From the IMG/VR virus record IMGVR_UViG_3300045580_000155, positions 1 through 29,043 of that record: a stretch of DNA of 29,043 bases, one strand, 5' to 3'. The translations under genes were made by a program, and so were the position numbers. The DNA comes from a virus (taxonomy: Duplodnaviria; Caudoviricetes). This document shows, one piece after another, positions 7,658 to 27,477 of this stretch (within the stretch, counting starts at the first letter, position 1; each line of letters begins with the position of its first letter). Under the pieces are notes generated by a model. The model was given only the letters and a program-made list of their open reading frames with translations. It made no database searches and was not told where the DNA came from.

Positions 7658-8041
7658 ATGTCGGCAGCAAGTGATTTTACAGAGAACCTGGCATTGACCT
7701 GGTTATTAACTTCAAGTTCAGCAACAAGACCAAGTGCTTGGTATCTTGGACTTTTTACATCAGCAACCAGTGACGCTGGTGGTGGCACAGAAGTAAGTGG
7801 TGGCAGTTATGCTCGTCAAAGCGTAGCATTTACAGTATCTACTTCAACTGCCAGCAACAGTGCTACTATTACATTCCCAACAGCCAGTGCAAGTTGGGGC
7901 ACAATTACTCACGTGGCAGTGTTTGATGCCAGCACCAGCGGCAATATGCTGTTTCACGGAGCAGTTACAACCAGCAAGACCATTGACAGTGGTGACACTT
8001 TCCAGGTTACATCAGGTAACCTGACAATTACTCTTGCCTAA
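7658..8041 (+). CDS. Small fibre/filament structural subunit
   Basis: Widespread phage fibre-subunit motif YLGLFT...GTEVSGGSYARQSVAF...NSATITFPTASASWGTITHVAVFDA.TSGNML. Own promoter, strong SD, 3' hairpin. Confidence 0.75.
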   Translation: MSAASDFTENLALTWLLTSSSATRPSAWYLGLFTSATSDAGGGTEVSGGSYARQSVAFTVSTSTASNSATITFPTASASWGTITHVAVFDASTSGNMLFHGAVTTSKTIDSGDTFQVTSGNLTITLA

Positions 8042-8046
8042 TAAAG

Positions 8047-8067
8047 AGTAGGGCACCTAGCCCTACT
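8047..8067 (+). promoter_or_regulatory. Intergenic stem-loop (mRNA-stabilising or weak terminator)
   Basis: AGTAGGGC-ACCTA-GCCCTACT, perfect 8-bp stem, no U-tract on the + strand. Confidence 0.6.
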
Positions 8068-8084
8068 AAAGGATAAACTAAACT

Positions 8085-10472
8085 ATGGCCACAATATATC
8101 TAAGAGCAAGTCTAGGACGAGCATTAACCTGGGCAGAAGCAGATGCGAATATATCAAATCTCAACACTGCCAAGTTAGAAAATCTTGTAGAAGATACTAC
8201 ACCTCAACTGGGTGGTAATCTTGATGTCAATGGCAATAGTATTGTGTCAGCGAGCAATGGCAATATTACTATTGCTCCTAATGGCACTGGCACACTGATA
8301 TGCAACACAGATGTTAGCACACGCAATACCAGTGCTACATATAATCTCACAGCGGGTGGTTTTACACAATCATCAGATCAATTGTATGCTTTTAGTAGTG
8401 TTGGTGCAGATGGCACACAGTCAGGTAGCACGCCTCATAGGGGATTAGGTGTTAGTAATGCAACCTCAGGCGGTCGTAGTGTTGTATATGTTAGAGCACA
8501 CGGACAAAATGAAAGTGGTGGCACTAGCACTACCGCAGGCCTTGCTCAATTAACATTAGAAGGCACAAGAGGCACACATACTGCGCCCACTGCCTTAACC
8601 ACAGGTAATAGTTTTTCTATTATTAGTGCAGGAGGATATGATGGTGCCAAATACACTGTGGCTGACAGGGGTGCAGGCACAGCACAGATAATTTTCCAAG
8701 CAGATGAACCCTGGGCCAATGATGGCACATATACCACAGATGCTGGCACTAATGTTATAATGCGTATACAGCCCAGTAATATGCGTTTGACCAGTAATAG
8801 TCGTCAAAACATTTTTATCACTGATTGGGATACGGCAGTAACGGGCAGTGGCCCTGAGCAGTATATTTTATTTGGTTATCCCAATAGTAATACACAATAT
8901 ACCAACACAGGTGTTCAATATACGGGCAGTGCAAAAACTAATACGCAATTTATCAATACCGCTTTGGCCAATATTGGTGTAACTGGACAGGATAGCGCAC
9001 AATTTACAGCAGATATTACAGGAACCACAATGACAGTCACTGCTGTAGCCAGTGGTATTATAAGCCTAGGACAAAGAGTTTATACAAACAGTGATGGAAC
9101 CTGGGGCAGTGTTACACAATTAACTACAATTACAGCCTTAGGCACTGGCGCAGGTAGCACAGGCACTTATACTGTTAGTGTTAGTCAAACAGTTGCAAGT
9201 ATGACTATGTATAGTGGTCCTGATAATCATAGTTTAAGATATAGTAACAGTATTGCTTTAGTGGCAAATAGACGTAACGGTCTAATTGGTCGTAGAAATA
9301 AAATTAAAAATAATGACATAATTCATACTATTGATTTTTATGGCCAAACTACAAACAGTAGTAGCAGTTATGGTGGTAAAACGGCCACTATAGGTGTTAC
9401 TGCCGTAGAGGATTTTGAAACCACAGCCTATGGTAGTCGATTTGCAATTGAAACAGTAGCACCAACAACTACCACATTGTCAACTAGATTAAGTCTGCAA
9501 AGCACTGTGAGCACAATTAACACAGATAGTTTAACAGTGGAAAATGTCGCAGGCACAGATATCTTAACCTTGTCTACAACTAGTGCGCAATTGACCAGTG
9601 ATAGTATCACACTTAGTTCTACTAATAATGGTAATATCTCAATTACGCCCAATGGCACTGGTTCAGTGATTATCGATGGACTTAGTTGGCCACAGTCAGA
9701 TGGCACCGCAGACTATGTGCTTAAGACCAATGGTTCAGGACAATTAAGTTGGACAGCACAGTCCAGTGGATTTTCAAGTTTTACCCTAGCAGCAGATTCT
9801 GGAACTAGTCAAACTGTAAATGATGGTAATACTGTAACAATTAGTGGAGGCACAGGAATAAGCACTGTGGCCAGCGCTACTGATACTGTAACTATAAACT
9901 TAGACAATACCGCAGTTACACCTAACACTTATACATATGCCACTATAACAGTTGATCAACAGGGTCGTTTGACCAGTGCAAGTAGTGGAACCAGTCCTGT
10001 AACATCAGTTTCAGGAACAGGCACAGTAAATGGTATTAGTTTATCAGGCACTGTAACTTCTACAGGCAGTTTAACATTAGGTGGCACATTAGATCTAAGT
10101 AGTCCTCCTGCTATTGGTGGCACTACAGCAGCAGCAGTGTCAGCAACTAGTTTGACATTTAAGGATCCTAGAGAAGCCATATATGACCTAGGCACCACAG
10201 GTGGAACTATTGCTCCCAATGTAAGTAATGGATCAGTGCAAAAAATTACACTAAATTCAGCACTAACAATGAATGCTTTTACCAGTCCAGTAGCAGGACA
10301 AAGTATGACCTTGATAATCTACGGTGGCACTGCATATACCAGTATAACCAGCACAATGAAATTCGCAGGTGGTGTGAAAACACTAACAGGCACAGCCAGT
10401 TGTATAGATATTTTAAGCGTATATTATGATGGCACTACATATTTTGCCAGTCTTAATAAAGGATTTGCCTAA
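8085..10472 (+). CDS. Long mosaic tail fibre / virion structural protein
   Basis: Gly/Ser/Thr-rich 795 aa with fibre motifs EDTTPQLGGNLDVNG, NGNITIAPNGTG-like (twice), WPQSDGTADYVLKTNGSGQLSW, TVDQQGRLTSAS. Confidence 0.8.
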   Translation: MATIYLRASLGRALTWAEADANISNLNTAKLENLVEDTTPQLGGNLDVNGNSIVSASNGNITIAPNGTGTLICNTDVSTRNTSATYNLTAGGFTQSSDQLYAFSSVGADGTQSGSTPHRGLGVSNATSGGRSVVYVRAHGQNESGGTSTTAGLAQLTLEGTRGTHTAPTALTTGNSFSIISAGGYDGAKYTVADRGAGTAQIIFQADEPWANDGTYTTDAGTNVIMRIQPSNMRLTSNSRQNIFITDWDTAVTGSGPEQYILFGYPNSNTQYTNTGVQYTGSAKTNTQFINTALANIGVTGQDSAQFTADITGTTMTVTAVASGIISLGQRVYTNSDGTWGSVTQLTTITALGTGAGSTGTYTVSVSQTVASMTMYSGPDNHSLRYSNSIALVANRRNGLIGRRNKIKNNDIIHTIDFYGQTTNSSSSYGGKTATIGVTAVEDFETTAYGSRFAIETVAPTTTTLSTRLSLQSTVSTINTDSLTVENVAGTDILTLSTTSAQLTSDSITLSSTNNGNISITPNGTGSVIIDGLSWPQSDGTADYVLKTNGSGQLSWTAQSSGFSSFTLAADSGTSQTVNDGNTVTISGGTGISTVASATDTVTINLDNTAVTPNTYTYATITVDQQGRLTSASSGTSPVTSVSGTGTVNGISLSGTVTSTGSLTLGGTLDLSSPPAIGGTTAAAVSATSLTFKDPREAIYDLGTTGGTIAPNVSNGSVQKITLNSALTMNAFTSPVAGQSMTLIIYGGTAYTSITSTMKFAGGVKTLTGTASCIDILSVYYDGTTYFASLNKGFA

Positions 10473-14937: not shown

Positions 14938-15257
14938 GCACAGGATTTTATCAAACACTACAAGGATTAACCATAGACAAAGACACTGAAGCAGTGTTAT
15001 TTTATAATTTTGAATGGGCAGACTGGCTTCCCACAGGTGATGCACTGAGCACAGTTGCATATAGCATAACTGCTCGTGCCAATGATCCAGATCCACTGGC
15101 AATTGAAAGCAGTGGCATATCAGGCACAAAGACTTATGTGGAATTAAGCAATGGGCAAACAGGCAAGACTTATACTGTAACTGCGGAAATTGAGACTAGC
15201 AATGGACTCGTTGACCGTCGTAATTTTCGTGTCAAAGTTCTAAATCGAAGTGCTTAA
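14934..15257 (+). CDS. Ig-like fibre-to-tail adaptor protein
   Basis: DKD.EAVL.Y.FEWADWL..GDAL...VELSNGQTGKTYTVT.EIETSNG..DRR.FRVKV, a family usually found with the 7658-type subunit. Confidence 0.65.
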   Translation: MSTGFYQTLQGLTIDKDTEAVLFYNFEWADWLPTGDALSTVAYSITARANDPDPLAIESSGISGTKTYVELSNGQTGKTYTVTAEIETSNGLVDRRNFRVKVLNRSA

Positions 15258-15268
15258 TATAATTTCTA

Positions 15269-15276
15269 TATAAGTA
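15269..15276 (+). promoter_or_regulatory. Variant T4-type late promoter TATAAGTA
   Basis: One mismatch to TATAAATA; GTG 15281 lies 4 nt downstream with no SD. Confidence 0.55.
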
Positions 15277-15280
15277 TTGG

Positions 15281-15637
15281 GTGGATCACAAGATATTTTT
15301 ACAGCGTCTAAAAGAACTGGCCCGGGTTGAATTTTATGTAGAACCTTCTACTAGAGACAAGAGTAGAGTTAAGAATCCAACCTGGCCAGTTCGTGTTCGA
15401 GAAATAATCTCTACACCACAGGTCTGTGAAGATTGTGGACTAGTCTGTGTTGAGAGACGAGTAGAAATTAAAAAATGTTTTCATCCCATAGTGCATTGGC
15501 GTAGAACCTGTAATACCTGTAAATTATCAATGGATCCAGAAACCAAAAAATTCACAGTTGATACAAAAACAAGTTATAATTTCTTCAAACTATACTACTC
15601 TAAAATAAAGACAAAAATATCTAAATCTAATAAATAA
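15281..15637 (+). CDS. Hypothetical zinc-ribbon protein
   Basis: CEDC and CNTC pairs; basic; probably leaderless. Confidence 0.7.
   Translation: MDHKIFLQRLKELARVEFYVEPSTRDKSRVKNPTWPVRVREIISTPQVCEDCGLVCVERRVEIKKCFHPIVHWRRTCNTCKLSMDPETKKFTVDTKTSYNFFKLYYSKIKTKISKSNK
15631..15636 (+). promoter_or_regulatory. T4-type late promoter core TAAATA driving candidate sRNA-1
   Basis: Overlaps the stop of the upstream ORF; first hairpin of the non-coding stretch starts 5 nt downstream (15642). Confidence 0.65.
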
Positions 15638-15641
15638 TAGT

Positions 15642-15768
15642 GTCAGGCAGAGTTCATTGCCATACTCTGTTTTCACTGACCTGGAAGATCCTATAGGTCT
15701 GTTCAACTCATAATCTTCCAGAAAAAAACACTTTGTTTTTCCCCGCTTCGCCGTGCGGGGTTTTTTTT
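15642..15768 (+). ncRNA. Candidate structured small RNA (sRNA-1, ~127 nt)
   Basis: Promoter; hairpin GTCAG/CTGAC enclosing GCAGAGT/ACTCTGT (loop TCATTGCCAT); hairpin CTGGAAGAT/ATCTTCCAG; AAAAACA/TGTTTTT; intrinsic terminator. No credible ORF. Confidence 0.65.
15741..15768 (+). terminator. Rho-independent terminator
   Basis: CCCCGC-TTCGCCGT-GCGGGG followed by T8. Confidence 0.9.
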
Positions 15769-15800
15769 GACTATAACAGCCCATTTTTTTGACTTTCTAA

Positions 15801-15806
15801 TAAATA
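15801..15806 (+). promoter_or_regulatory. T4-type late promoter core TAAATA in the loop of a hairpin reaching the SD
   Basis: CTTTCTAA(15793-15800)-TAAATA-TTGGAAAG(15807-15814), then GAGG and ATG 15823. Confidence 0.65.
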
Positions 15807-15822
15807 TTGGAAAGGAGGACAT

Positions 15823-16155
15823 ATGGACCAAAATTATGTTGTAATAAAACAAACTCGAATAAAAAGTCGTTATGGACATTTAATCACACAAATAGACCTA
15901 GTTGGCGTAAAAGATAGACTGTGTTATCGAACATACATTGACCCACATAATCGAAACTTTTCAAATTGGGCACATATACTGCATCACAGCAATCACGGAT
16001 TTTTATTGGGTAGACTAAGGCGTCGAAGAGCGGATATTATCAGTGCTGACAGTGATCCAGTTATTCGTTGGGAAAGCACAGACCCAGAAGAGATTTATGG
16101 TGAATTGCTGTCAGTTTGGCAGGAACAAGACAGCCAATCAGAATTGATCCTATGA
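15823..16155 (+). CDS. Hypothetical protein
   Basis: Strong SD AAGGAGG; 110 aa; no recognised motif. Confidence 0.75.
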   Translation: MDQNYVVIKQTRIKSRYGHLITQIDLVGVKDRLCYRTYIDPHNRNFSNWAHILHHSNHGFLLGRLRRRRADIISADSDPVIRWESTDPEEIYGELLSVWQEQDSQSELIL

Positions 16156-16166
16156 TTTTTTTGTAG

Positions 16167-16174
16167 TATAAATA
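16167..16174 (+). promoter_or_regulatory. Perfect T4 late promoter consensus TATAAATA
   Basis: Intergenic, heads the LuxR/polymerase gene cluster. Confidence 0.72.
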
Positions 16175-16205
16175 AAAGAGAACAGCAACCTTGAAGGAGA
16201 AAATT

Positions 16206-16223
16206 ATGAAAACCATTACTTAA
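16206..16223 (+). CDS. Leader minigene MKTIT
   Basis: AAGGAG-aaaatt-ATG AAA ACC ATT ACT TAA; near duplicate of the start region of the next gene. Confidence 0.4.
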   Translation: MKTIT

Positions 16224-16234
16224 AGGACAAAATT

Positions 16235-16429
16235 ATGACCATTCGCTTGACACCACGTGAAGCAGAGATTTACAAATTACTAACAGAAAGAGGAATCAGC
16301 AACAGACAAATAGCAGACACATTAAAAATATCAGAATCAAGTGTAAAACATCATTTAGGCAACATTTATCAAAAATTCGGCGTGATAAATCGTATGCAAT
16401 TAATAACATTTAAAGGAACAGACCAATGA
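16235..16429 (+). CDS. Stand-alone LuxR/GerE-type HTH transcriptional regulator
   Basis: LTPREAEIYKLL..GISNRQIADTLKISESSVKHHLGNIYQKFGV.NR.QL is the canonical LuxR C-terminal HTH. Confidence 0.92.
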   Translation: MTIRLTPREAEIYKLLTERGISNRQIADTLKISESSVKHHLGNIYQKFGVINRMQLITFKGTDQ

Positions 16430-16608
16430 TAATAATATCAAAGCGCCACGAACTACACAGTGTTAGCGTTCATAAAACACGACAGCAAGGACCGCATTAT
16501 GCTGCTCTTAGATGTGAGCAGTGTAATAAACATATCCAATGGTTAAATCAAGTAGATGCAGACCTAATCCAAAAATTATTAGATGAGGAGAAGAGCAATG
16601 AGAAATAA
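16426..16608 (+). CDS. Small zinc-ribbon-like hypothetical protein
   Basis: GPHYAALRCEQCNKHIQWL; ATGA coupling. Confidence 0.7.
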   Translation: MIIISKRHELHSVSVHKTRQQGPHYAALRCEQCNKHIQWLNQVDADLIQKLLDEEKSNEK

Positions 16609-16702
16609 TTTTCGTAGTGACACTATTAATAAGTTTCTCTGTGATAGTGACACTTTAATGCTAATTTCATTGTTCTTTCATCATAGGAGCAATCATAAAT
16701 GA
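16598..16702 (+). CDS. Possible 34-aa ORF (MRNNFRSDT...), not in the ORF track
   Basis: GAGGAG upstream; overlaps both neighbours (ATGA at 16699). May be a by-product of a cis element. Confidence 0.35.
   Translation: MRNNFRSDTINKFLCDSDTLMLISLFFHHRSNHK
16615..16659. repeat. Two palindromic direct repeats TAGTGACACT(A)TTAAT, 30 bp apart
   Basis: TAGTGACACT at 16615 and 16645, each followed by (A/-)TTAAT; core AGTG-A-CACT is self-complementary. Confidence 0.6.
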
Positions 16703-17097
16703 ATTATTCTCCAGTGCTTTGCGTTAATTCATTACTTAAGCAAGCCTATGAATTTTATCTTCGACCCGATAGGCTTGAACTGATAATATCTGATATGCAA
16801 CAGGTATCCGCTATTGATAGAAAAAAAAGTCAGATTATCTTAGAGAGATATGTAGAACTGCTTATTGACAGTATTAGAGATTTGAATTTAGGTAAGGATA
16901 ATTGGGAACTTGAATTCAATCAATTTTATATTCCTTTGAGCCGGATACGACATCGAGCCGGAAGATATGGACCTCAAGGTCAACAAAAATATTGGTCTGA
17001 CTGGTTTTTGGCCAATCATTCATTTATTCTGATTGATCGACTAGGATATCATTATAAAAATAGAGCCAGACCCACTGTGGCCAAGATTAAAGGATAA
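16699..17097 (+). CDS. Hypothetical protein, possible partner or N-terminal domain of the polymerase-like gene
   Basis: SD AGGAG; 132 aa; ends 7 nt before the polymerase-like ORF. Confidence 0.65.
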   Translation: MNYSPVLCVNSLLKQAYEFYLRPDRLELIISDMQQVSAIDRKKSQIILERYVELLIDSIRDLNLGKDNWELEFNQFYIPLSRIRHRAGRYGPQGQQKYWSDWFLANHSFILIDRLGYHYKNRARPTVAKIKG

Positions 17098-17104
17098 AAA
17101 CAAG

Positions 17105-18316
17105 ATGAAAAAGATACCTATTGATCGTAGAAGTTTATTGAATTATATAAATTGGGAATATGATTTATATCTTCAATACCAAAGAGCGAATAACACCAAT
17201 CAACGACAAGAAAGTCATTATAGACTAAGATATGCTCAAAACATATTAAGTCTTGCAGAAATTAACCAAGGATCGTTGCCAGTCACGGAATTTAAGAGTC
17301 AATTTGGCAGAACTTATCATCAGGGCATAAACTTACAAAGTTGTCCCAGTGTAGTTAGAATAGCAGCATTAGGACGTTGTTATTGTGCTGATGTAGATGC
17401 CAGTGCATTGACCTGGAAATACCAAATGGCTCGAAAAATTGATCCCCAACTTCGAGCACCTTATACTATAGATTATTTTGATTACAAAAATTATCATAGA
17501 CAGCAATTAAGTTATAGAGTTTTTGGAACCGACAAATATATCAGTTTGGTCAAACAAATATTCAGTGCTGTGGGATTTGGAGCCACTATAAATCGCAGTG
17601 GTTGGATAAACATAGGCACTAAAGAAAATCCCAGTTTTAGACCAAGCACTGCTTTGACAGACATTATAAGAGACAAACAAACCAGAAAGCGATTGCTAGA
17701 TGATCCTTGGTTCCAGAATTTTACACAAGAGCAAACAGTTATTTCCAATATCATTTACAATGAAGTTAAAAATTTGCCTGCTCTACGTAAAGATATGTTT
17801 CGAACGCCCAGTGGTAGAATTAGCCAAAATCGTGTCTTGGCCTTTTTATATCAGCAAAGCGAAACAGAATTTATGAAGCCCGTTATTGATTGGGCTCAAC
17901 AGTCAGAACTGTTATTGGTCTGTCACGATGCTGTCTACACTAGATATCGACCTGATATAGCCAGTTTGCAGTATCTATTAACACTGAATTTACCCAATAG
18001 TTCAATGAGTTTAGAAGCACATACCAGGTTCCAAAGTAAAGAAGATATACAAGAACTAGAAAGGCACAAAAATTTTATACAAGAGGAAGAATATCGTGCG
18101 GCCCGAGAGCATAATCGACCTATTCATCGACCTAAACCATTAAAATTTCCTTATGAACAGCGTAATGAAGAATATGATTCGGGCTATGATGATGGTCATA
18201 GTGCTTATCTAGAACCTAGATATAATGAATATAATGAAGACCTAGATCAATTTGTTCCTGAACCACTTCCTGATTATATCCTACAATTACTTGACACTGC
18301 TCAAAATCAGATATAA
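17105..18316 (+). CDS. Divergent family A DNA polymerase / T7-type RNA polymerase superfamily catalytic domain, no exonuclease
   Basis: Ordered motifs: FGRTYHQGINLQ, motif A CADVDAS, motif B VKQIFSAVGFGA, LYQQSE, motif C LLVCHDAVY; acidic C-terminal tail. Confidence 0.7.
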   Translation: MKKIPIDRRSLLNYINWEYDLYLQYQRANNTNQRQESHYRLRYAQNILSLAEINQGSLPVTEFKSQFGRTYHQGINLQSCPSVVRIAALGRCYCADVDASALTWKYQMARKIDPQLRAPYTIDYFDYKNYHRQQLSYRVFGTDKYISLVKQIFSAVGFGATINRSGWINIGTKENPSFRPSTALTDIIRDKQTRKRLLDDPWFQNFTQEQTVISNIIYNEVKNLPALRKDMFRTPSGRISQNRVLAFLYQQSETEFMKPVIDWAQQSELLLVCHDAVYTRYRPDIASLQYLLTLNLPNSSMSLEAHTRFQSKEDIQELERHKNFIQEEEYRAAREHNRPIHRPKPLKFPYEQRNEEYDSGYDDGHSAYLEPRYNEYNEDLDQFVPEPLPDYILQLLDTAQNQI

Positions 18317-19676: not shown

Positions 19677-19839
19677 AGATTTATTTGAAGCCCTGCTGTT
19701 AGGCACGCTAATTGCCTGTGTCACTGACATCCATTGGGGCATAATTGCCCTGTTCTTTTGGATTTTAGTATGTCAACTGTTAAGGCACAAAGAATTAGAC
19801 AGTGAATATGAACATATAGATAGAGATTTGTTTAAATAA
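19669..19839 (+). CDS. 56-aa membrane protein (holin-like topology), not in the ORF track
   Basis: GTG start; MIRDLFEALLLGTLIACVTDIHWGIIALFFWILVCQLLRHKELDSEYEHIDRDLFK: hydrophobic stretches plus charged tail. Confidence 0.55.
   Translation: MIRDLFEALLLGTLIACVTDIHWGIIALFFWILVCQLLRHKELDSEYEHIDRDLFK
19833..19838 (+). promoter_or_regulatory. T4-type late promoter core TAAATA driving candidate sRNA-2
   Basis: Overlaps the upstream stop; hairpin starts 4 nt downstream at 19843. Confidence 0.65.
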
Positions 19840-19842
19840 TGT

Positions 19843-19926
19843 GCAGGCTCAGGGTTGAGTCTGCTTTTGACATTATTAACTGCGTTTAACTCGCATTTAG
19901 ACCTCTTTTATTAGGGGTCTTTTTTT
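19843..19926 (+). ncRNA. Candidate small RNA (sRNA-2, ~84 nt)
   Basis: 5' hairpin GCAGGCTCA-GGGT-TGAGTCTGC, single-stranded TTTTGACATTATTAAC, small TGCG/CGCA stem, terminator. Confidence 0.65.
19899..19926 (+). terminator. Rho-independent terminator
   Basis: AGACCTCT-TTTATT-AGGGGTCT (one G-U) followed by a T run. Confidence 0.85.
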
Positions 19927-24382: not shown

Positions 24383-24410
24383 TAAATACTCCATATAACT
24401 CATAATGGAG
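24383..24410 (+). promoter_or_regulatory. T4-type late promoter core TAAATA plus SD-sequestering hairpin for the scaffold/capsid operon
   Basis: TAAATA(24383-24388), then CTCCAT(24389-24394) pairing with ATGGAG(24405-24410), which contains the SD. Confidence 0.7.
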
Positions 24411-24421
24411 GCGATGCCACA

Positions 24422-27460: not shown

Positions 27461-27477
27461 CACTAACAGGAAGATTA

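Follow-up and report, generated by a model that had tools for sequence, protein, structure and literature searches.

The window (the whole 29,043-nucleotide stretch analysed here, IMG/VR record IMGVR_UViG_3300045580_000155) is a complete circular, siphovirus-like genome of about 28.8 kb whose ends overlap by 202 nt. It belongs to a small freshwater phage with head and tail genes of its own (terminase, portal, capsid, tape-measure and tail), all on the + strand. Profile searches of its 41 ORFs matched no sigma factor, helicase, primase or integrase and no repressor or antirepressor, and its 64-aa LuxR-type HTH protein gave weak matches to sigma region 4. Among 58 ORFs selected from four relatives, no sigma factor was matched and one ORF matched primase-helicase families. 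The motif TAAATA occurs 11 times on the + strand and 3 times on the - strand of the window, mostly immediately before genes. The closest named genome by terminase (49%) is that of DSL-LC06, a phage of about 30 kb from the orphan group proposed as 'Nanhuiviridae' (PMC10611076); TAAATA has no strand bias there (9 versus 8), and the available parts of that paper mention neither RNA nor helper and list no unit of the kind described below.

The locus begins with orf118 (15281-15637, + strand), a Cys-rich, zinc-finger-like ORF without a Pfam or PHROG match, for which the first Atlas match, a C2H2-named cluster at 0.90, is a lead only. A non-coding unit follows at 15631-15768, and then, all on the + strand, a LuxR-type HTH gene (16235-16429; Pfam GerE, 1e-16), orf60 (16426-16608), a 132-aa ORF (16699-17097) and a PolA-fold polymerase-like ORF (17105-18316), whose AlphaFold model (pLDDT 88) resembles Klenow and Pol A structures. 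The last of these has 455 relatives in an uncharacterised family; most of them are about 530 aa long, and the window gene may therefore be split from the ORF at 16699-17097. The genes from 16235 to 18316 are probably co-transcribed downstream of a leader at 16169. Relatives' loci were fetched by terminase and adaptor searches (44, 80 and 36 loci), and 20 near-whole genomes were examined; about 8,800 stored stretches fit the terminase patterns, not all of them from the window's phage group. In most relatives an orf118 homologue precedes the RNA unit, which usually lies between that homologue and the next TAAATA. A PolA-like gene was detected by tblastn in just 4 of 22 genomes.

The non-coding unit opens with a TAAATA late-type promoter (15631-15636; ATAAATA from 15630), all six letters of which are kept in the sister locus L198, and transcription would start at about 15641-15642. 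Hairpin 1 (15642-15680) has a 10-nt loop, TCATTGCCAT (15654-15663), that ends in GCCAU (loop A), the complement of AUG-GCA. Hairpin 2 (15681-15721) consists of a 5' arm and apical loop CUGUUCA (loop B; 15689-15705) and a 3' arm, CAT-AATCTTCC (15709-15721). A weak, A/U hairpin 3 (about 15724-15740) is followed by an intrinsic terminator (15741-15768) with a stem at 15741-15760 that has six G-C pairs, an 8-nt loop and a run of T8. The promoter, the three hairpins and the terminator in non-coding DNA are thus all present as originally described. The + strand folds at -44.3 kcal/mol (z -4.39; none of 200 shuffles as good) and the - strand at z -3.35. Rfam has no match to the unit at gathering score; a search at E up to 10 returned seven weak, sub-threshold matches of terminator type, C4 not among them, and no family matches the loci of 11 relatives at gathering score. 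The unit is a real element, and its sequence suggests that it is likely a small RNA of roughly 127 nt. The unit has a promoter and terminator (by sequence), a non-coding span and a conserved structure, as trans-acting antisense sRNAs do. Among 24 runs listed for the sequence none is of RNA, which weighs neither for nor against transcription.

Three other stretches of the window bear on the unit. Inside orf118, about 32 nt (15572-15604) are invariant between the window and L198 and include the TATAAT of a sigma-70-like site with an 11/12 match; this could possibly be a host-read promoter yielding a longer form of the RNA. A second TAAATA-hairpin-terminator unit (19833-19926, + strand) carries the complement of an ATG-TCA start, with an anti-start score of p 0.008 and 0.01 against shuffles, and its first hairpin shares a bulged stem layout with hairpin 1; a target for it was looked for and not found. 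The scaffold-gene leader (24383-24421), directly behind a TAAATA, folds a short hairpin over its own SD and has 10 nt in common with the replaceable arm of hairpin 2.

We compared four runs over 15250-16250, plus two contigs. The window and L198 share 38/39 positions of hairpin 1, beside an orf118 that is 252/357 identical (71%), and a change of A to G at 15656 is present in runs X7 and X8 and in contigs L165 and L198. The apex of hairpin 2 (15695-15708) is 14/14 identical and unchanged between alleles, whereas its arms are 7/14 and 4/13 identical; the hairpin 3 region (15722-15740) is 17/19 identical and the terminator 26/28, with its stem unchanged. A second allele of hairpin 2 (allele B, runs X5 and X7) has both arms rebuilt and has lost the CAT at 15709-15711, and the L198 contig carries an allele of this kind. 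Given the loss of the CAT, and with 4 of 13 arm positions matching the sister allele, the CAT arm is a passenger and not the guide that it had been taken for. A 9-nt match at 27469, noted earlier as possibly due to chance, belongs to this replaceable arm, and the leader at that place pairs at chance level (z +0.27). Stem covariation is clear in hairpins of the hairpin 1 type: among 14 clade members, double changes occur in 12 of 26 pairs (0/500 shuffles) and in 5 of the 6 pairs under the GCCAT loop. Loop CUGUUCA of the window corresponds to the second family loop, CUGUCA. Two loops are thus conserved while their stems covary, and it is in this form that the expected structural conservation was borne out, the CAT of hairpin 2 having been lost. 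A covariance model built from the largest clade does not detect the window RNA, and its homology hence rests on synteny and loop motifs.

Our results suggest that the conserved part of hairpin 2 is directed at the phage itself. About 480 nt downstream of the unit, on the same strand, lies the predicted target transcript (16169-16223), with TAAATA at 16169-16174 and a leader (16180-16199) that carries the loop-B site GAACAG at its 5' end and then the SD AAGGAG. A 5-codon uORF follows (16206-16223), the stop of which overlaps the SD of the HTH gene. Pairing is partial, over 14-16 bp. Relative to foreign RNAs, the 16169 leader is the best of the window's nine own leaders (14 bp, -15.8, z -1.77; 1 of 17 foreign RNAs as good), and 27 of 2,000 shuffles of the leader are as good; genome-wide, 138 of 7,169 windows pair better with the RNA. 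Across the family, the complement of loop B stands 4-5 nt behind the TAAATA of a downstream own promoter at 14 of 23 loci; over all leaders, GACAG has this position in 6 of 275. Twelve of the 14 belong to one clade, and 9 of the 23 have no own site. Both variant loops (CTGTTC in the window and CTGTT in genome G019) have a matching variant leader, and own RNA-leader pairs are better than permuted ones (p 0.0026, n 14).

The alleles, taken from difference tables read by hand, add a second line of evidence. Allele B (X5, X7) is a perfect complement of the window leader over 9 bp and 6 bp, its arm CTTCAAGGT being the exact complement of 16188-16196. The leader of X5, through three changes, is a perfect 10-bp complement of allele A of the window RNA at 15689-15698; as this stretch has a palindromic core, copying and pairing are indistinguishable for the allele-A match. 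In cofolding the L198 allele opens onto the leader, but for allele A of the window the duplex fails to beat hairpin 2 (dimer -46.1 versus monomers -44.9). In the window, X8 and X16, allele A occurs with a non-matching leader that fits allele B; in X7, allele B co-occurs with its matching leader and no second leader allele is listed. Seed and target thus appear to change together, as in trans-acting antisense sRNAs. Of the C4 arrangement, in which two loops are complementary to a phage leader and one covers the ribosome site, the window shows the loop-B half, its loop A having no own site, and G019 shows both halves. Taken together, the sequences predict that the loop and 5' arm of hairpin 2 are a guide against the phage's own 16169 leader. 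Loop B was also considered as an anti-start seed and rejected: one context would need CTG, which is absent from large-phage starts. Resemblances of loop B to an anticodon loop, a -35 box or 16S rRNA were weighed by eye and set aside.

The other loop tells a different story, and one that can be read only at the level of the family. For the window unit alone, complementarity to a translation start is not significant (p 0.18 and 0.086; 500 shuffles). A fixed rule applied to 53 TAAATA-biased sources yielded 18 units, and an SD plus start on the reverse complement beat shuffles at p<0.05 in 4/18 and 5/18 units (Fisher 2.6e-4 and 9e-6), with 1/18 in the sense control. The strict rule applied to 36 new loci (21 past the bias filter) gave three distinct units and a sense control that was also significant, and is for both reasons no clean replication; a looser listing found the same loop in most of the new loci among those listed. 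In an unbiased collection from 161 sources, made up of 111 distinct non-coding stretches that follow TAAATA, GCCAT is the top loop 5-mer (in loops of 21 stretches) and is present in 35 stretches, versus 6 for ATGGC. Immediately 5' of GCCAT any of the four bases may stand (T24 C5 A4 G4 among 37), as at the wobble position of an Ala codon. After 9 of the 37 rows had been dropped as minus-strand starts or unbiased sources, pairing with AAGGAGG in the 28 kept peaked 6-9 nt 3' of the CAT (0/1000 shuffles); in the 17 rows outside the largest clade the same peak was reached by 13/1000 shuffles. The anti-SD profile correlates with that of real starts (r 0.78 and 0.82), and the complement of a family consensus built from four relatives gave 90 viral matches, of which 66 are gene starts and 4 the RNAs themselves.

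The anti-start signal is therefore a family-level result, and loop A is supported as an anti-AUG-GC seed conserved across the family. The anti-start idea holds for hairpin 1 because, family-wide, an anti-SD stands at ribosome-site spacing after the loop complement. What had been proposed for the 3' arm of hairpin 1 in the window, a complement of the target's leader, fell away: that arm has no anti-SD at ribosome-site spacing, and the stem covaries freely in relatives. Several promoter-hairpin-terminator units of relatives lack the GCCAT loop (L004:9476-9558, L021:5596-5731, L022:2508-2629, L025:4341-4432, L044:4040-4135 and L023/G006 30411-30545); among units without GCCAT, several have complements of an SD plus ATGCC, TTGGC, ATGAG, ATGTC or ATGCG starts.

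In many relatives the target of loop A appears to be close at hand. The next own leader is a better partner for loop A than foreign leaders are (run 6.2 versus 5.53, p 5e-5, n 30; p 1.5e-4 in a 21-lineage subset; p 0.04 by energy), and in 7 of 17 genomes the RNA as a whole scores z<-1.6 against the leader that follows. When 162 sites were ranked for the RNA of G003, first place went to the SD and opening codons of that genome's PolA-like gene, and a genome-wide NTGGC scan ranked a plausible own target first in G003 and G005 only. Early own-gene tests, which used incomplete start lists, were negative (10 units with 12 shuffles each; 17 genomes) and have been superseded by these later tests. The window is an exception, as 27 of 29 foreign leaders are as good for its loop A as its own. 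Hairpin 1 is the most conserved part of the unit in the window even though it has no own target there, and its partner likely lies outside the genome.

Scans for that partner returned no exact target. The exact complement of hairpin 1 had 15 matches in the viral scan, of which 12 lie within one unrelated CDS and 2 at starts, both of non-T4-like genes; the metagenome scan gave 44 matches, including two homologous RNAs and no recognisable T4-like gene start. A 22-nt complement from L006 matched itself alone. Against cultured phages, BLAST with three units and with the region yielded chance-level matches alone, one of them over 21 nt where two genes meet in Roseobacter phage CRP-171 (E 0.1). A lead came from the consensus complement: one family that it matched, with TAAATA upstream, is a 1070-aa tail sheath whose closest cultured relatives are Atu_ph07, PA5oct and the RaK2 group. 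Among the 800 genes called in 80 loci of that group of large myophages, TAAATA stands before 68 of 72 tube genes, which begin MAV, MAI or MAT, and 51 of 54 sheath genes, which begin MAL. Residue 3 as implied by the loop-A guides is L, I or V in 18/26, compared with 19/132 other ATGGC starts; the 8-nt seed of the window fits 23/72 tube starts versus 15/674 other starts; and tail genes are favoured by 17/26 guides versus 63/172 pseudo-guides. This fit is a lead, since the guides are related, the 8-nt seed is short, and the choice of sheath is partly circular, that family having been picked with a pattern built from MAL guides. By sequence, the tail-tube starts of TAAATA-using jumbo myophages would be the best fit for hairpin 1 of the window; the leaders of rival small phages, 7 of 17 of which could pair with its loop A, would also fit.

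The account that we consider probable is that of a small RNA of about 127 nt, made from a late promoter probably read by the sigma factor of a co-infecting large phage, that would act as a translational repressor with two seeds, hairpin 2 on the phage's own 16169 leader and hairpin 1 on AUG-GC starts that likely lie outside the genome. It is based on the anatomy of the unit, the conservation of loops on covarying stems, the complementarities, and the matched changes of RNA and leader. We infer each functional step as follows. The RNA would be made late in infection, and loop B would kiss the single-stranded 5' end of the neighbouring 16169 transcript. Pairing would extend from the loop-B site over the SD, and a block of the 5-codon uORF would repress the coupled translation of the HTH, orf60 and PolA-like genes, so that replication-associated genes are damped. 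Loop A would cover AUG-GC, in the same leader in many relatives and in another phage's message in the window.

A first alternative, which we regard as unlikely, is that the RNA serves mainly for exclusion or immunity among related small phages sharing a helper-infected cell, with both seeds directed at the rivals' equivalent leader, much as C4 specificity separates P1 from P7. It would account for loops that are conserved without an own site (loop B at the 9 of 23 loci, loop A in the window), for the 7 of 17 other genomes whose next leader could pair with loop A of the window, and for allele A standing beside a leader that fits allele B in the window, X8 and X16. Own pairs are, however, better than foreign pairs, and X7 has allele B with its matching leader and no other leader allele listed.

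The original prediction, in which each of the two hairpins acts as an anti-start guide on genes of a helper or host and there is no own target, now seems quite unlikely in that form. The preferences of the guides for tail genes speak for it: L, I or V at residue 3 as in tube and sheath starts, the fit of the 8-nt seed to tube starts, and the 17 of 26 guides that prefer tail genes. The sheath part of these is circular, however, and the guides are not independent. The CAT of hairpin 2 is not conserved, its loop and 5' arm pair instead with the own 16169 leader, 2 of 800 large-phage starts carry the complement of loop B, and neither the viral and metagenome scans nor the cultured phages yielded an exact target. 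From this proposal, a trans-acting antisense RNA is still the most likely class, whereas an exact helper or host target was sought and not found; complementarity to starts exceeded shuffled controls for the family and not for the window unit alone.

It is also conceivable, but very doubtful, that the loops are protein-binding or single-stranded-DNA signals (a translational-repressor decoy, an orf118 partner or, at an origin, a primase site) and that the complementarities are by-products. A short, invariant loop on a freely varying stem is typical of a protein site, the unit has a fixed place behind the Cys-rich orf118, and repeats follow it in some relatives (TTGCCA in G003, GGCA in the L209 group). 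Against this, the unit is bracketed by a promoter and a one-way terminator, the base 5' of GCCAT may be any of four letters with an anti-SD at SD spacing, and loop and leader change together. That the region is an untranscribed terminator with chance folds, as the non-significant anti-start score of the single unit might suggest, is scarcely credible given a fold at z -4.4, 38/39 conservation beside a 71%-identical ORF and family-wide covariation.

Further non-coding features were noted in relatives. Many relatives without a detected PolA-like gene have a conserved non-coding region of 500-750 nt directly after the unit (L209:7170-7739, L216:3978-4568, L226:2082-2668, L076:2303-2959 and G001 about 8040-8639). 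It is of at least two sequence types, begins with the loop-B site and GGCA repeats, has no Rfam match, and is a candidate origin, primer RNA or long ncRNA. At L051:3590-3680 (G003), three direct repeats starting TTGCCACTGG lie, iteron-like, between the RNA terminator and the PolA-like promoter, and at L038:8179-8320 (G004) a very long A/T-rich inverted repeat of about 140 nt stands behind TAAATA, just upstream of a gene.

As to what might read the promoter, jumbo phage CBB is reported to have ATAAATA before its structural genes and a gp55-like sigma factor, and the T4 late promoter is TATAAATA, as given in the available text of the same source (PMC5259590). In Atu_ph07 the motif stands upstream of two genes, that of the sheath and one of tube size. 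For PA5oct, a cultured phage related to the candidate helper group, TATAATA/TTGAC promoters and not TAAATA are reported in the accessible part of its description (PMC7318152). Jumbo myophages account for about 17,000 stretches. The lack of a matched sigma factor in the small phage and the promoter shared with CBB and Atu_ph07 would fit a putative helper dependence, yet the promoters reported for PA5oct differ; the late promoter is probably read by the sigma factor of a co-infecting large phage. A wider scenario, which we put forward tentatively and hold to be possible at most, is that an abundant aquatic family, these 25-32-kb tailed phages with heads and tails of their own, parasitises RaK2/Atu_ph07-like jumbo phages as free-living entities and borrows their late sigma, the RNA being a switch of which one loop throttles the phage's own replication operon and the other silences the contractile-tail genes of the helper over an AUG-GC start. 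Should the helper link be true, lakes and seas would commonly harbour phages that parasitise other phages and interfere with them through RNA. The findings also point to a very common, unstudied phage group that uses the jumbo-myophage late promoter while no sigma factor can be recognised in its genomes, and they add an RNA family, unmatched in Rfam, in which covariation can be used to read off the targets, which makes the mechanism testable.

Several known RNAs invite comparison. SviR, a satellite sRNA of the Vibrio cholerae PLE, has two seeds, for its own and for helper transcripts, near 5' UTRs (bioRxiv 10.1101/2022.04.08.487710, available text). The window RNA would be alike in having one predicted seed for its own and a putative one for helper transcripts; it differs in that its seeds lie in separate hairpin loops and its helper is putative, whereas the PLE is a chromosomal island of one pathogen. 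SviR was the only satellite sRNA precedent that we found in the open-access literature. In the C4 RNA of phages P1 and P7, two loops act in trans on a phage leader, one of them occluding the ribosome site, and few bases set specificity (PMC5320573, available part). The window RNA resembles it as a small multi-stem phage RNA for which two-loop action on a leader is proposed. C4 is, however, a 77-nt RNase P product that controls an antirepressor, whereas the window RNA is about 127 nt long with its own promoter, of late type, and terminator, has no Rfam match, has a predicted target that leads to a PolA-fold gene, and comes from a genome without a repressor or integrase match.

The CI RNA of the satellite phage P4 is processed from the transcript under its control, acts by premature termination and pairs with two sites in the leader of that phage's replication operon. 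The window RNA likewise would pair with the leader of its own replication operon, but it is a separate upstream unit in a phage that encodes its own head and tail. The plasmid copy-control RNAs, CopA/tap of R1 and RNA I of ColE1, initiate pairing from loops with a leader bearing a short ORF before a replication gene, and they are encoded opposite their target and fully complementary to it. Loop-initiated pairing and a short ORF in the leader are likewise predicted for the window RNA, which is in contrast encoded apart from its target, on the same strand, and is partly complementary, so that it is not cis-encoded. Since it failed the Rfam test for C4 and is not cis-encoded, we do not file it under the C4 or the plasmid-type families. 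The available part of a review of phage sRNAs (PMC12197685) lists nothing like it. We found no description of such an RNA in the open-access literature. Large lists of candidate motifs outside Rfam may presumably contain it. In summary, the window RNA is a real element and a fresh form of two-loop phage antisense RNA.
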